Source: Candidatus Hermodarchaeum yapensis (lineage in GTDB: Archaea; Asgardarchaeota; Hermodarchaeia; Hermodarchaeales; Hermodarchaeaceae). Taken from it: a stretch of 64,000 nt of DNA. Position 1 is the stretch's first letter. Every line of letters starts with the position of its first letter. Shown here piece after piece: positions 27,720 to 31,630 of this stretch. The position numbers were made by a program, and so were the translations under genes. The stretch covers positions 40,952 through 104,951 of the forward strand of contig JAEOSK010000001.1 of assembly GCA_016840405.1 (NCBI GenBank). Direction: 5' to 3'. The notes below the pieces were generated by a model. That model was not told where the DNA came from. It made no database searches and worked only from the letters and a program-made list of their open reading frames with translations.

Positions 27720-27758
27720 GTTGAAAATCGTACTTACCGGTTCCCGTTCATAAAAATA
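27720..27758 (+). promoter_or_regulatory. conserved 39-nt upstream element copy 1 (gttgaaaatcgtacttaccggttcccgttcataaaaata) ending in TATA-like box
   Basis: 36-38/39 identical in three copies, each ~45 nt upstream of the aligned Met of a paralog. Confidence 0.45.
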
Positions 27759-27802
27759 TGAGAAAACATCTTCATTGGTCAATCCTACTGGTGCTACTGA
27801 AA

Positions 27803-28969
27803 ATGTTGAGGACTAAACGTTGGATACTGATATTAATTCCAATAATACTTGCATCAACAATTTCACCTGTGACTAGCACACTTTCTTCGCCAATCCAAAG
27901 ACGTGATTATTGGCCCAATATGGGGTGGCGATTATTACACCCTGAGGCGCAAGGTATGAATTCAACTCGATTGAACGAATTTTGGAACTATATGTATACA
28001 GAAGCACTTCTGGGAGGATTCTTGCTTATCCGTAACGGGTATCTGATTTATGAAGCGTTCTATCCTGGTGTGGGCGCAGATCACCTCTGGAGTGTTGTTT
28101 CAGTTGCAAAAAGTGTTACTGCGACAGCTCTTGGTGTTGCCCTAGCAGAGGGATACGTTACGGGTATCAATGCTTCCGTCTTAGACTTCTTTCCAGACCG
28201 AACAATAGCAAATCTGGATCCACGCAAGGATGCTATGACAATTCGGCATCTGCTCACTATGTCCGCTGGGTTTGAATCCCAACTTGAGCAAATTGTTCTT
28301 CCAAATGACTGGATACAATACCTTCTCGATTTGCCTATGATCCACGAACCTGGAGAAGTCTGGAACTTTGACGGTGGTTGTTCACATCTCATCTCGGCAA
28401 TCATCACACAAACAACAAGTCTACCCATGGCAGAATACGCTCAAATCCGACTCTTTGGGCCAATGGGGATTTCCAATTATGAATGGGATGCAGACCCACA
28501 AGGGAACACGATGGGATTTGGACATTTAACTATGAATTTACGGGATTTAGCCAAAATTGGGTTTCTGTACTTGAATAATGGAACTTGGGGTCCTTTCCAA
28601 CTAGTCCCCTCAGAATGGGTGATTGAATGTACCCAGACACACTTTCTTTTACCAGATGGTGTTGGTTATGGGTATCAGTGGTGGGTTGATCCCGCCATTT
28701 CAGGATATTCTATGCGTGGGACAGGTGGGATTCGCGTTTTTGTACTTCCCGAACAGGACATAGTCCTCGTATTTGCTGGCGCATCGGTCTTTGGCATTCT
28801 TGACTATTATTCTGCCTTTGAGGAATTTCTTTATCCCGCAATCATTGGTGACCCTGTTAGTTACCCACAATCGGTAACCGAACAAATTTTACCTTTCGTG
28901 ATTGTACTCCTTGTTGTTGTGATCCCAATTGTAATTGTTAATAAGTCCCGACGAGGAAAACGGTCTTGA
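27803..28969 (+). CDS. beta-lactamase-fold serine hydrolase (class C/PBP4-like) paralog 1, N-terminal signal anchor and C-terminal TM anchor (ORF track extends to 27758)
   Basis: S-x-x-K motif SVAKS, conserved core shared with two downstream paralogs. Confidence 0.7.
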   Translation: MLRTKRWILILIPIILASTISPVTSTLSSPIQRRDYWPNMGWRLLHPEAQGMNSTRLNEFWNYMYTEALLGGFLLIRNGYLIYEAFYPGVGADHLWSVVSVAKSVTATALGVALAEGYVTGINASVLDFFPDRTIANLDPRKDAMTIRHLLTMSAGFESQLEQIVLPNDWIQYLLDLPMIHEPGEVWNFDGGCSHLISAIITQTTSLPMAEYAQIRLFGPMGISNYEWDADPQGNTMGFGHLTMNLRDLAKIGFLYLNNGTWGPFQLVPSEWVIECTQTHFLLPDGVGYGYQWWVDPAISGYSMRGTGGIRVFVLPEQDIVLVFAGASVFGILDYYSAFEEFLYPAIIGDPVSYPQSVTEQILPFVIVLLVVVIPIVIVNKSRRGKRS

Positions 28970-29051
28970 ACCCATATTGATCTTTCCTAAGGTCGAATGC
29001 CAAAAAAAGAATTCAAGAGTTACAGTTTTGACGCGATATCTACTCAAGGTT

Positions 29052-29090
29052 GTTGAAAATCGTACCTGCCGGTTCCCGTTCATAAAAATA
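29052..29090 (+). promoter_or_regulatory. conserved 39-nt upstream element copy 2
   Basis: see copy 1. Confidence 0.45.
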
Positions 29091-29134
29091 CCTGGTGAAC
29101 TCTTTGTGTGATATCCTTGTGGATGTTGCTGAAG

Positions 29135-30301
29135 ATGTCAATTCAGAAGAATTGGGTTCTCACTTTGATTCCATTAATATTAGTCTCCCTATTCTCACCG
29201 GTTGCAGGAACCCAAATTTTTCCTGTGCAGGGTCGTGATTATTGGCCTACAACAGGTTGGCGAATGGCACCACCTGAATCTCAAGGAATGAGTTCCGCCC
29301 AGTTAGACGAGTTTTGGGACCAAATGAATGAAGGAGCTGATTTGGGAGGATTTGTGCTTATTCGAAACGGGTATCTGTTGTATGAAGTCTATTATCCTGG
29401 TGTAGGACCAGAGTATCTATGGAGGCTTGCCTCGATAGCCAAGAGTTTTACAGCGGGTGTCCTCGGGGTCGCAATGGCTGATGGCTACATTACAAGTATT
29501 AACAACTCTGTTTTGGACTATTTTTCTGATCGAACTTTTGCGAATCCGGATCCGCGCAAGGATGCTATGACAATTCGGCATCTCCTCACTATGTCCTCCG
29601 GATTTGAATCTAATGCCGCAACAATGGGTTTTAGCTCAGACTGGGTGCAATATCTTCTCGATTTACCCATGATTCGTGAACCCGGAGAAGTCTGGAGGTA
29701 TGACGGAGGGTGTCCGCATCTCATTTCAGCAATAATTAGTAAATCAACGGGAATATCTATGCTCGATTTGGCTCGAGAAAAGCTTTTTACCCCGATGGGA
29801 ATTTCTAATTTTGAGTGGGATGCAGACCCACAAGGCAATACAATCGGATTTGGGAACCTCGCTTTGAGTCTACGGGATTTAGCCAAATTCGGCTATCTGT
29901 ATTTGAATAATGGTTCTTGGGGGCCTTTTCAGCTACTTCCCGCCGAATGGGTGACCGAATGTACTAAAGCACATTTTCTGTTTTCTAATGGCTATGGTTA
30001 TGGCTATCAATGGTGGGTTGATCCGATAATTTCGGGGTACTCTATGCGTGGGGCTGGTGGTCTGCGAGTATTCATACTGCCGAAACAGGACCTTGTCCTT
30101 GCAATTGCTGGCGCAATCAGGTACACTTATTTAGATTTCTACTCGGTCTTTGAGGAATATCTCTTTCCTGCAATAATTGGTGACACTATTAATTACACAC
30201 CATCAGTTGGGGAACAAATCTTTCCATTCATAGTAGTTCTTCTACTTACTGTGATTCCAGTTATTGTCGGTAACATGTATCAACAAAGAAAACGGCATTA
30301 A
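29135..30301 (+). CDS. beta-lactamase-fold serine hydrolase paralog 2 (ORF track start 29108, GTG)
   Basis: SIAKS motif; same architecture. Confidence 0.7.
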   Translation: MSIQKNWVLTLIPLILVSLFSPVAGTQIFPVQGRDYWPTTGWRMAPPESQGMSSAQLDEFWDQMNEGADLGGFVLIRNGYLLYEVYYPGVGPEYLWRLASIAKSFTAGVLGVAMADGYITSINNSVLDYFSDRTFANPDPRKDAMTIRHLLTMSSGFESNAATMGFSSDWVQYLLDLPMIREPGEVWRYDGGCPHLISAIISKSTGISMLDLAREKLFTPMGISNFEWDADPQGNTIGFGNLALSLRDLAKFGYLYLNNGSWGPFQLLPAEWVTECTKAHFLFSNGYGYGYQWWVDPIISGYSMRGAGGLRVFILPKQDLVLAIAGAIRYTYLDFYSVFEEYLFPAIIGDTINYTPSVGEQIFPFIVVLLLTVIPVIVGNMYQQRKRH

Positions 30302-30384
30302 ATACCATTTTGTTCTTGCTTTTTATGGGATGCTGAAAACAGAATTTGCTGGTTACTAAACTGTTAAGAAATTCTCTAACACAA

Positions 30385-30423
30385 GTCGAAAATCGTACCT
30401 GCCGGTTCCCGTTCATAAAAATA
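30385..30423 (+). promoter_or_regulatory. conserved 39-nt upstream element copy 3
   Basis: see copy 1. Confidence 0.45.
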
Positions 30424-30466
30424 TATGATAAACCTTCTCTGGTTCACCTAACGGGTGCTGCTATAC

Positions 30467-31630
30467 ATGTCAACACAGAAGAATTGGATTCTCGTTCTAA
30501 TCCCCCTGGTCTTGGCCTCAGTAATCACACCTGTAACCAGCACCCACTTTACACCCATTCAAGATCGTGATTATTGGCCCACCGCTGGATGGCGAATACA
30601 ACCACCTGAATCTCAAGGAATGAATTCTACTCGACTAGACGAATTTTGGAATCACATACACCCAATAGATGGACTAACAGGTTTTCTGCTAATCCGTAAT
30701 GGATACCTGTTGTATGAAGCTTACTGGCCAAACTTAGGACCAGACACTCTTGGGACAGTAGCATCAATTACCAAAAGCATTTCCGCAACAATCCTCGGTG
30801 CTGCGATAGCAGATGGTTATGTCACAAGCGTCAATGATTCGGTCTTGGACTATTTTACAGACCGAACTATTGCAAACCCGAGTCCACAGAAAGACGCTAT
30901 GACCATATGGCATTTGCTCACGATGTCCTCGGGATTTGAGTCTAGTGCACAAACAATGGGATTGGCGCCAGACTGGATTCAGTATGTCCTCGATTTACCA
31001 ATGGTCAACGATCCAGGAGCGGTTTGGAACTATGATGCTGGTTGTTCACATCTCATCTCGGCAATCATTTCCCAAACCACAGGTATGTCTATGGCGACGT
31101 ATGCTCAAGCTCGGGTTTTGGGACCGATGGGAATCTCGGTTTATGAATGGCCCACAGATCCACAAGGAATAACAACGGGATTTGGAGGGCTAGAATTAAA
31201 ATTACGAGACTTAGCAAAATTTGGCTACCTATTCTTGAATAATGGTACCTGGGGTCCTTTTCAAATTATACCCACAGAATGGGTGGCGGCCTGCACTCAC
31301 TCATACTTTAATTTCACTATTGATGGTTATGGGTACCAGTGGTGGGTTGATCCAGAACTCTCTGGATATTCCATGCGTGGGGCTGGTGGAAAGCGAGTTT
31401 TTATTCTTCCTGAACAAGACCTTGTACTCGTCTTTGCTGGAGCTACCACCTATAGCATTTTAGACTTCTATTCGCTCTTCGAGGAATTTCTTTATCCCGC
31501 CATCATCGGAGATACCACTAGTTTACAGCAACCCGTTCAAGAGCAGGTTTTACCATTCGTGCTCGTACTCCTGATAATCATCATCCCACTTGTCGTAGGA
31601 ACCAAGTACATACAAAGAAAACGGTCCTAA
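30467..31630 (+). CDS. beta-lactamase-fold serine hydrolase paralog 3 (ORF track start 30455)
   Basis: SITKS motif; same architecture. Confidence 0.7.
   Translation: MSTQKNWILVLIPLVLASVITPVTSTHFTPIQDRDYWPTAGWRIQPPESQGMNSTRLDEFWNHIHPIDGLTGFLLIRNGYLLYEAYWPNLGPDTLGTVASITKSISATILGAAIADGYVTSVNDSVLDYFTDRTIANPSPQKDAMTIWHLLTMSSGFESSAQTMGLAPDWIQYVLDLPMVNDPGAVWNYDAGCSHLISAIISQTTGMSMATYAQARVLGPMGISVYEWPTDPQGITTGFGGLELKLRDLAKFGYLFLNNGTWGPFQIIPTEWVAACTHSYFNFTIDGYGYQWWVDPELSGYSMRGAGGKRVFILPEQDLVLVFAGATTYSILDFYSLFEEFLYPAIIGDTTSLQQPVQEQVLPFVLVLLIIIIPLVVGTKYIQRKRS

Follow-up and report, generated by a model that had tools for sequence, protein, structure and literature searches.

We analyzed a 64,000-nt stretch of contig JAEOSK010000001.1 of the Asgard archaeon Candidatus Hermodarchaeum yapensis (hereafter referred to as the window), in which three tandem genes for membrane-anchored hydrolases of the beta-lactamase fold (bla; copies B1, B2 and B3) are each preceded by an almost identical non-coding block of 39 nt. 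The block is private to this locus, it is older than the divergence of the genomes carrying it, and it is held by purifying selection. It is probably a cis-regulatory module dedicated to these genes, composed of an atypical core promoter and an upstream factor site and kept by selection since before the triplication of the genes.

A conserved block in front of three old paralogs

The consensus GTTGAAAATCGTACYTRCCGGTTCCCGTTCATAAAAATA was found on the plus strand in front of B1 and B2 without mismatch and in front of B3 with one mismatch (Table 1). The block starts are separated by 1332 and 1333 nt, so that the coordinates bear out the original prediction of a 39-mer before each of three genes at a spacing of about 1333 nt. 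Pairwise, the copies agree at 36–38 of 39 positions. No match to the 39-mer is expected from shuffled sequence, and no further copy was detected in the window even when 3 mismatches were allowed. The distance from the end of the block to the aligned ATG codons (27803, 29135 and 30467) is 44, 44 and 43 nt, respectively, slightly less than the roughly 45 nt given before. In a three-way alignment of the duplication units, the block is by far the longest invariant run, and about 80 nt on its 5′ side and 44 nt on its 3′ side are poorly conserved. A repeat period of 1331–1333 nt was also observed in related genomes. The regular spacing had been described as an exact period; the values hold, but the period of the array merely reflects the absence of insertions and deletions since the tandem duplication.

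The possibility that nearly identical, recently duplicated genes trivially explain the similarity of the blocks does not apply here. The paralogs share 63.9–65.1% identity at the protein level, within the 60–70% estimated originally, and 68–70% at the nucleotide level. Only 43–45% of four-fold degenerate sites are identical among them, and the NG86 estimates for synonymous (dS) and non-synonymous (dN) divergence are 1.3–2.0 and 0.24, respectively. Based on dS and the four-fold degenerate sites, the three paralogs are old copies, and therefore a recent duplication cannot account for the conservation of the block.

Related arrays in other Asgard genomes

Syntenic three-gene arrays were found in eight further sources among Asgard metagenome-assembled genomes (MAGs) and metagenome contigs (L001, L003/4/5, L006, L014+L020, L022, L024, L025 and L028). 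In these contigs the gene order is nitroreductase, glyoxalase, GNAT, three bla genes, an open reading frame (ORF) of 305 aa, and a GTPase gene. The block precedes every bla copy in these arrays, with 0–5 differences in 39 positions. Orthologous bla proteins are 71–91% identical across approximately nine genomes. The closest proteins originate from MAGs labelled Hermodarchaeota, Thorarchaeota, Odinarchaeota or Promethearchaeota at NCBI, the best match being 89% identical, and the neighboring genes in the window include those for a Roadblock/Arf-type small GTPase, RNase HII and DNA ligase.

For a wider search we used collections that lacked the window's own genome. A scan of 185,579 species genomes with GGTTCCCGTNCATANAAATA yielded matches at the bla locus of two Asgard MAGs and 7 bacterial matches; the latter all belong to unrelated phyla and were taken as chance, approximately 17 chance matches being expected. 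In the two Asgard MAGs no further near-exact copies of the block were present beyond the bla locus. A metagenome scan with the upstream half of the block returned two more bla arrays and nothing else. The search for additional 39-mers proposed together with the original prediction was thus carried out on the window and on genome and metagenome collections, and with near-exact matching led to this locus only, which speaks against a generic promoter of many unrelated genes. A generic promoter, a dispersed repeat, a mobile element and a CRISPR-like array were also rejected on the grounds that there are three copies per genome, always 43–44 nt before a bla paralog.

Purifying selection and gene conversion

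In trees built from proteins and from DNA, the copies cluster according to their position in the array, and the B1, B2 and B3 clades each span several genomes; the exception is the third copy of L006, which is a re-duplicate of the second copy of L006. Because the copies cluster by position across genomes, the triplication is older than the split between these genomes, and since then each coding region has evolved on its own. Fitch parsimony on 19 complete units gave 0.56 steps per site for the 39-nt block, in comparison to 0.82, 1.29 and 3.37 steps per site at codon positions 2, 1 and 3, respectively, confirming that the non-coding block is better conserved than the coding sequence. The 60 nt of upstream spacer and the 44-nt leader evolved at 2.90 and 3.27 steps per site. 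In these 19 units, 27 of the 39 block sites never changed; positions 5–26 are near-invariant, and positions 3, 9, 12 and 15 are the most variable. Since fewer changes per site fall on the block than on second codon positions in a tree that groups copies by position, the block is under selection.

Besides selection on a shared promoter and operator, it had been suggested that gene conversion restricted to the promoter is still going on, which would keep the copies alike without any selection on the sequence. Conversion does happen in the bla family. In L006, positions 7591–7863 and 8924–9196 (copies 2 and 3) are 100% identical over a 273-nt run, which extends from 2 nt upstream of the block into the coding sequence, while the upstream flanks are unrelated. 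This tract is a recent gene conversion or crossover, the endpoint of which used the conserved block as homology. However, it is the sole tract observed and is not confined to the promoter. Furthermore, concerted evolution homogenises copies within a genome and cannot keep the same sequence over approximately nine diverged genomes, and it is implausible that conversion tracts would be limited to 39 nt, with sharp borders at either end, in all three copies and in many lineages. The variants of the block also follow orthology: several genomes have C3 and G34 in their copy-3 block, copies 1 and 2 of the same genomes lack both, and no derived variant was common to all paralogs of one genome, save for the re-duplicated copies 2 and 3 of L006. 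Concerted evolution is therefore a highly improbable explanation. Because the variants follow orthology and conversion cannot maintain one consensus across genomes, the block is held by purifying selection and not by promoter-limited gene conversion. Of the two explanations offered originally, the comparison of the phylogeny with the promoter variants, which had been recommended as a check, decides against conversion. Selection on a shared promoter or operator is supported by the retention of the block at all three positions in approximately nine genomes, by its slow evolution and by its promoter-like distance to the genes, the last of which suggests rather than proves a promoter.

A predicted atypical promoter with an upstream factor site

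In archaeal promoters, an A/T-rich TATA box of 8 nt is located approximately 25 nt upstream of the transcription start. Before 44 other genes of the window, A/T octamers are most frequent between −60 and −50 from the start codon. The A-rich box of the bla block is centred at about −49 from the ATG, with the box ATAAAAATA located 44 nt before the ATG. A GGTG motif (GGAT in copy 2) is present at −13, and GGTG or GAGG near the start was also found before many other genes of the window. A promoter on the plus strand fits because the A/T box lies at the usual distance and GGTG is at −13. Generic promoters of the window possess T-first TATA-like boxes (TTTTTAAG, TTATATAAG and TATTTTAGG) with purine-rich bases upstream, mostly 50–60 nt before the start codon, and the enriched promoter 6-mers are TATATA, TTTAAG, TTTTAA and TTTTTA. 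The bla box CATAAAAATA and the preceding CCCGTTC depart from the generic TTTWWA(A)G TATA box and the purine-rich B recognition element (BRE). The earlier proposal of ataaaaata as TATA box thus agrees with the distance to the ATG, but its sequence is atypical for this genome, and we regard it as a candidate TATA box.

From these patterns we derived the following model. The block would have been inherited with each duplication unit. Its 3′ end (CCCGTTC and ATAAAAATA) would represent an atypical BRE/TATA core promoter, from which transcription would start approximately 22 nt before the ATG, giving a short leader with GGTG as ribosome binding site. The 5′ two-thirds of the block (GAAAATCGTACCTGCCGGTTCC, with GCCGGTTCC as the oldest core) would serve as the site of a sequence-specific transcription factor directly 5′ of the BRE. 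The most likely mode would be activator-dependent recruitment of TBP and TFB, resulting in a coordinated expression of the three surface-anchored paralogs. Activator dependence is favored because BRE and TATA depart from the generic form of the genome and because the position of the predicted site, with the near-invariant positions 5–26 abutting CCCGTTC/ATAAAAATA, matches that of known archaeal activators, which typically bind just 5′ of the BRE at promoters with a non-consensus BRE or TATA box (PMC5512572; PMC6737238).

Through a related site, the gene of a BPL_N-like surface protein (24767–25726) might be co-regulated. Its promoter contains TTCCGGTTTCCATGTAAATAAAAG in three-copy lineages and (A/C)GCCGGTATCCAAG(A/G)(T/G)AATA(A/T)A(A/T) in single-copy ones, and CCGGTWTCC plus an A-rich box before this gene are conserved in all lineages while the flanks vary. 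In the window, 7 motifs of the CCGGTWYCC type were found versus 1.36 expected; 4 of the 7 are in these promoter positions, and 3 of those 4 are the bla copies. Both protein families have a signal-peptide-like N-terminus and a C-terminal transmembrane (TM) segment with a basic tail. A shared factor for the bla and BPL_N-like promoters is plausible on this basis.

Several points weigh against an activator-dependent promoter on the plus strand. ATAAAA, TAAAAA and AAAATA have 1–2 occurrences each (0.5–0.8 expected), too few for enrichment, and on the minus strand the A-rich box (TATTTTTATG) is nearer to the generic T-first TATA box than on the plus strand. The TATA assignment and the orientation of the block are predictions. 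A second A/T box, TTGAAAAT, is located at the 5′ end of the block and could itself be the TATA box, which would place the core as an operator over the start. In the block there is no dyad or clear direct-repeat symmetry as recognised by most archaeal regulators, and the regulator is a putative factor. The similarity to the BPL_N-like promoter consists of a degenerate 9-nt motif, and without the three bla copies 4 matches remain versus 1.36 expected. Also, the collection scans needed near-exact matches and MAGs are incomplete, so that diverged members of a regulon would be missed.

The main rival to the activator reading is a repressor operator with an alternative TATA box. Here, TTGAAAAT (positions 2–9) would be the TATA box, transcription would start inside the block, and CCGGTTCCCGTTCATAAAAATA would be an operator over the start and early leader, with a leader of approximately 65–70 nt. 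This geometry is compatible with the presence of two A/T boxes in the block, separated by about 29 nt, and with the situation in L026, where GGTTTAATCC to the left of the core matches a TATA box better and the right box has decayed; moreover, the sites of archaeal repressors overlap the TATA box and the transcription start or lie downstream of them (PMC5512572). On the other hand, TTGAAAAT is a poor match to the generic TATA box of the genome, positions 2–4 and 9 are variable while 8 of the 9 sites of the right box never change, and the leader would be longer than usual for genes of the window. Altogether, we consider repression in this form unlikely, although it is the rival to be taken most seriously. 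Much less probable is a minus-strand promoter with TATTTTTATG as TATA box for a short antisense or intergenic RNA ending at the T-run of a semi-conserved AAAAANAGAATT block. The reverse complement of the A-rich box does resemble the T-first TATA boxes of the window, and a semi-conserved AATTCTnTTTTT follows about 55 nt further on the minus strand, but the putative RNA body is the least conserved part (2.9 steps per site), BRE-like conservation is missing on the required side, no structure was found, and the distance to the bla ATG as well as GGTG fit the plus strand. The least credible options are a coding role of the block (as a micro-ORF on one of the two strands), a structured RNA, and a site of recombination or of a mobile element. 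On the minus strand the sequence is ATG AAC GGG AAC CGG CAG GTA CGA TTT TCA (MNGNRQVRFS), and the four most variable sites (3, 9, 12 and 15) are third codon positions of this reading. Yet the phase bias of 12, 6 and 4 steps is not significant (chi-square p ~0.09), a stop occurs at codon 6 of the minus-strand reading in B1 of the window, L014 and L028, the ATG is lost in L024, and the plus-strand frames have neither a start codon nor a conserved end. With respect to a structured RNA, riboswitch or hairpin, no structure was seen at the RNA or DNA level, the consensus fold has −2 kcal/mol with 0 compensatory or covarying pairs and a shuffle z of ~0.1, and Rfam gave 0 matches at E ≤ 1; a mobile element is at odds with the three copies per genome, always at this locus. 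A replication-origin ORB (origin recognition box) or dif-like site was considered as well and dropped, as there is no dyad and the copies are direct repeats 1.3 kb apart, each tied to a gene start.

History of the locus

Six lineages with a single bla copy were examined (L007, L009, L011, L026, L029 and L030), in which bla is approximately 50–58% identical. In these, all that is kept in the positional homolog of the block is a GCCGGTTCC-like core and, at an unchanged distance, an A-rich box; the rest differs, as illustrated by TGCCGGTTCCCGT (L026), TGCCGGGTTCC (L030) and TGCCGGTTC (L009). The gene of the BPL_N-like membrane protein is located directly 5′ of the single bla gene in L007, L009, L011, L029 and L030, while L026 has a glyoxalase gene instead. 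In three-copy lineages the BPL_N-like gene is found 5′ of the nitroreductase gene; given these two locations, it was relocated. The BPL_N-like gene of L007 and L009 ends in a TGA located exactly 25 nt upstream of the A-rich box, the same spacing as that of the TGA in the GTTGA that opens the block. Because of this match, the left edge of the block looks like an old gene end.

The last ~50 nt of the GNAT gene are also present, in decayed form, in units 2 and 3. These relics fix the duplication unit, and therefore the adjacency of GNAT and bla is older than the triplication. A weaker conserved patch (AAAAANAGAATT...GTT.C) was observed 28–55 nt 5′ of each block (27665–27690, 29003–29025 and 30320–30355); it is coding in unit 1, where it belongs to the GNAT C-terminus, and non-coding in units 2 and 3. 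Across the 19 units, 8 of 60 spacer sites are invariant versus ~3 expected. The patch could be a distal regulatory site or a slowly decaying relic.

The three hydrolases

All three proteins match the Pfam family PF00144 (Beta-lactamase) with 89.5, 102.7 and 93.5 bits (cut-off 27; E 3e-25 to 3e-29). The nearest solved structures are Lsa45 (8dc1; E 8e-28), the class C-related hydrolase 8rlj and the NylB-type 6-aminohexanoate-dimer hydrolase 4gb7. As proposed, a serine-hydrolase core with a catalytic SxxK motif is present in each protein, and SVAK, SIAK and SITK align with SVTK of 8dc1 and SVVK of 8rlj. The second motif is YDG in B2 and YDA in B3, with the tyrosine aligned with that of the solved relatives, and FDG in B1. 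Phenylalanine replaces the tyrosine of the YxN site in every B1 ortholog (including those of L001, L003 and L006) and in copy 3 of L006, whereas tyrosine is kept in B2, B3, the single-copy orthologs and the solved relatives (WNFDGG in B1 versus WRYDGG and FDYSNG). As the catalytic tyrosine is replaced across the whole B1 clade, B1 may be inactive, catalytically altered or re-purposed. The third motif of the paralogs is RG(A/T)GG, without K or H, in place of the usual K/H-T/S-G. The proteins thus resemble class C beta-lactamase-related serine hydrolases in the PF00144 score well over the cut-off, the SxxK motif and, for B2 and B3, the tyrosine of the second motif, but differ by Y-D-G/A or F-D-G instead of Y-x-N, by R-G-A/T-G-G instead of K/H-T-G, and by the added C-terminal TM anchor. 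The best NCBIfam match (3-succinylated cholic acid synthase) is far below its cut-off.

With regard to the membrane architecture described before, each of the three proteins has a hydrophobic segment at the N-terminus and, at the C-terminus, a TM segment followed by a basic tail. Rather than the signal anchor named originally, the short N-terminal stretch may be a cleavable signal peptide, which it resembles more closely. An archaeosortase-type sorting signal was considered for (L/F)PF followed by the TM segment and basic tail, but there was no NCBIfam match at E ≤ 0.1, and the segment was read as a plain TM anchor. A further observation concerns the DNA of B3, which is 92–100% identical over most of its length between the window (30467–31630) and L003 (9344–10507); elsewhere in the array the identity between the two is 67–95% in B1, 60–90% in B2 and 64–85% in the upstream region of B3. 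This uneven divergence suggests that the body of B3 recently recombined or was transferred between lineages.

Genes downstream of the array

The array is followed by a trio of genes (31787–35493) typical of Asgard "eukaryote-like" genes. Gene 1 encodes an N-terminal domain of the WDTKEGL type and a C-terminal region similar to a TFIIB repeat and helix-turn-helix (HTH), gene 2 (32828–33697) a Roadblock-like N-terminus fused to an Arf/Roc-type GTPase, and gene 3 (33895–35493) a protein of 532 aa whose N-terminus forms a similar domain and whose long tail consists of Lys/Glu-rich repeats. The 305-aa ORF downstream of bla was considered as a dedicated TFB-like regulator and rejected: it has a weak match only, to the second TFIIB cyclin repeat plus HTH (Pfam E 0.002, NCBIfam E 4e-5), and it also adjoins bla in single-copy lineages, where the promoter is not frozen, leaving such a role as speculation. 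A stand-alone single TFIIB cyclin repeat of 99 aa (PF00382) is encoded a few kb upstream in single-copy lineages (L009 3393–3692, L010 371–670 and L011 1279–1578).

For the ORF called from the ATG at 31889, the start is almost certainly 34 codons further upstream, at ATC 31787, judging from its comparison across 11 lineages (window, L003, L006, L007, L009, L011, L022, L026, L027, L029 and L030). These share GGTG-N7-AT(C/T)-CCN-CGN-GG followed by IPRGLVxSxWDTKEGLKIL, and the variable columns of this segment number 10, 4 and 18 at codon positions 1, 2 and 3, a coding-type pattern. No canonical start codon precedes the IPRGLV segment in the 11 lineages, three of which have only a TTG 27–29 codons in, and in seven lineages an in-frame stop lies only 2 codons upstream. 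In this Asgard gene, initiation at AUU/AUC appears to be conserved. The leader in front of it (31645–31786) is conserved at the nucleotide level even where bla is only ~50% identical, with the blocks GTTCAGTATATCGGAA, AAAAACCTTTTTCTG (31689–31703) and CCTTGATTGAAGCCAAGG; no Rfam match was found for it. RNAalifold pairs ACCUUUU with the Shine-Dalgarno region AGAAGGU (31772–31779), both sides being invariant and thus giving no covariation support. According to this predicted fold, the pairing could mask the ribosome site.

Table 1. Positions of the block copies, predicted promoter elements, duplication relics and paralogous genes in the window.
Feature	Position	Strand	Basis
39-nt block, copy 1 (GTTGAAAATCGTACTTACCGGTTCCCGTTCATAAAAATA)	27720..27758	+	sequence match, unit alignment, Fitch counts
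39-nt block, copy 2; identical to the inferred ancestral consensus	29052..29090	+	sequence match, alignment, Fitch counts
39-nt block, copy 3; C at position 3, as in copy-3 orthologs elsewhere	30385..30423	+	
GGTG, Shine-Dalgarno-like site, 9 nt before the ATG of B1	27790..27793	+	read from sequence
Shine-Dalgarno-like site, equivalents of B2 (GGAT) and B3 (GGTG)	29121-29124; 30454-30457	+	
Predicted transcription start zone, unit 1; pyrimidine-A step at 27780/27781	27778..27784	+	~23 nt after the A-rich box; archaeal promoter geometry
Predicted transcription start zone, units 2 and 3	~29110-29116; ~30443-30449	+	same geometry
TTCCGGTTTCCATGTAAATAAAAG, candidate second target site 5′ of the BPL_N-like membrane protein gene	24695..24718	+	shares CCGGTWYCC and an A-rich box with the bla block
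GNAT 3′-end relic, unit 2; marks the duplication-unit boundary; AAAAANAGAATT...GTT positions semi-conserved	28992..29025	+	
GNAT 3′-end relic, unit 3; 71% identical to 27643-27694	30308..30359	+	
bla-fold paralog B1, 388 aa, PF00144, SVAKS	27803..28969	+	signal-peptide-like N-terminus, C-terminal TM with basic tail
bla-fold paralog B2, 388 aa, PF00144, SIAKS, YDG	29135..30301	+	
bla-fold paralog B3, 387 aa, PF00144, SITKS, YDA	30467..31630	+	

Relevance and comparison with known systems

The locus offers a well-delimited candidate promoter/operator of 39 bp, backed by three paralogs in approximately nine genomes. In addition, a second gene has a shorter core motif in common with it. The block could be used directly to capture an Asgard transcription factor by DNA affinity, or as a probe for recombinant TBP and TFB in vitro, and the array is a clean example for separating purifying selection from concerted evolution. 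In a limited literature search, no Asgard-specific study of transcription starts or promoters was found, and nothing on this gene array. The case is one of clean but fairly ordinary cis-regulatory conservation, unsurprising in principle, and no new kind of mechanism is indicated. A more far-reaching reading, to which we give little credence, would combine the observations as follows: the block was frozen since the three paralogs are needed in a fixed proportion, B1, having lost the tyrosine, joins B2 and B3 as a non-catalytic subunit of a hetero-oligomer at the cell surface, and one lineage-specific factor at GCCGGTTCC beside the unusual BRE drives a small Asgard regulon of surface enzymes (the three bla genes and the BPL_N-like gene). 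If this were true, it would be among the first cis-regulatory codes defined in Asgard archaea.

With tandem paralogs under concerted evolution, the array has in common the tandem arrangement with an identical shared segment and, in L006, a true 273-nt tract starting from the block. In contrast to such systems, coding regions and flanks evolve independently here, paralogs group by position, and block variants follow orthology.

A likeness also exists to the archaeal activator systems EarA at the Methanococcus fla promoter, the Sulfolobus ara-box, Pyrococcus TFB-RF1 and Thermococcus Tar, in which a conserved site abuts the upstream side of a non-consensus BRE/TATA (PMC5512572; PMC6737238) and is common to promoters of functionally linked genes. 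The bla block differs from the known sites in being unusually long and contiguous (39 nt), in that its factor is putative, and in its host, an uncultured Asgard archaeon. Tar recognises the palindrome TGGACA-N8-TGTCCA and EarA 6-bp boxes, whereas the block has no palindrome and no obvious short repeats. Also, its targets are three paralogs related by descent and perhaps one neighboring gene.

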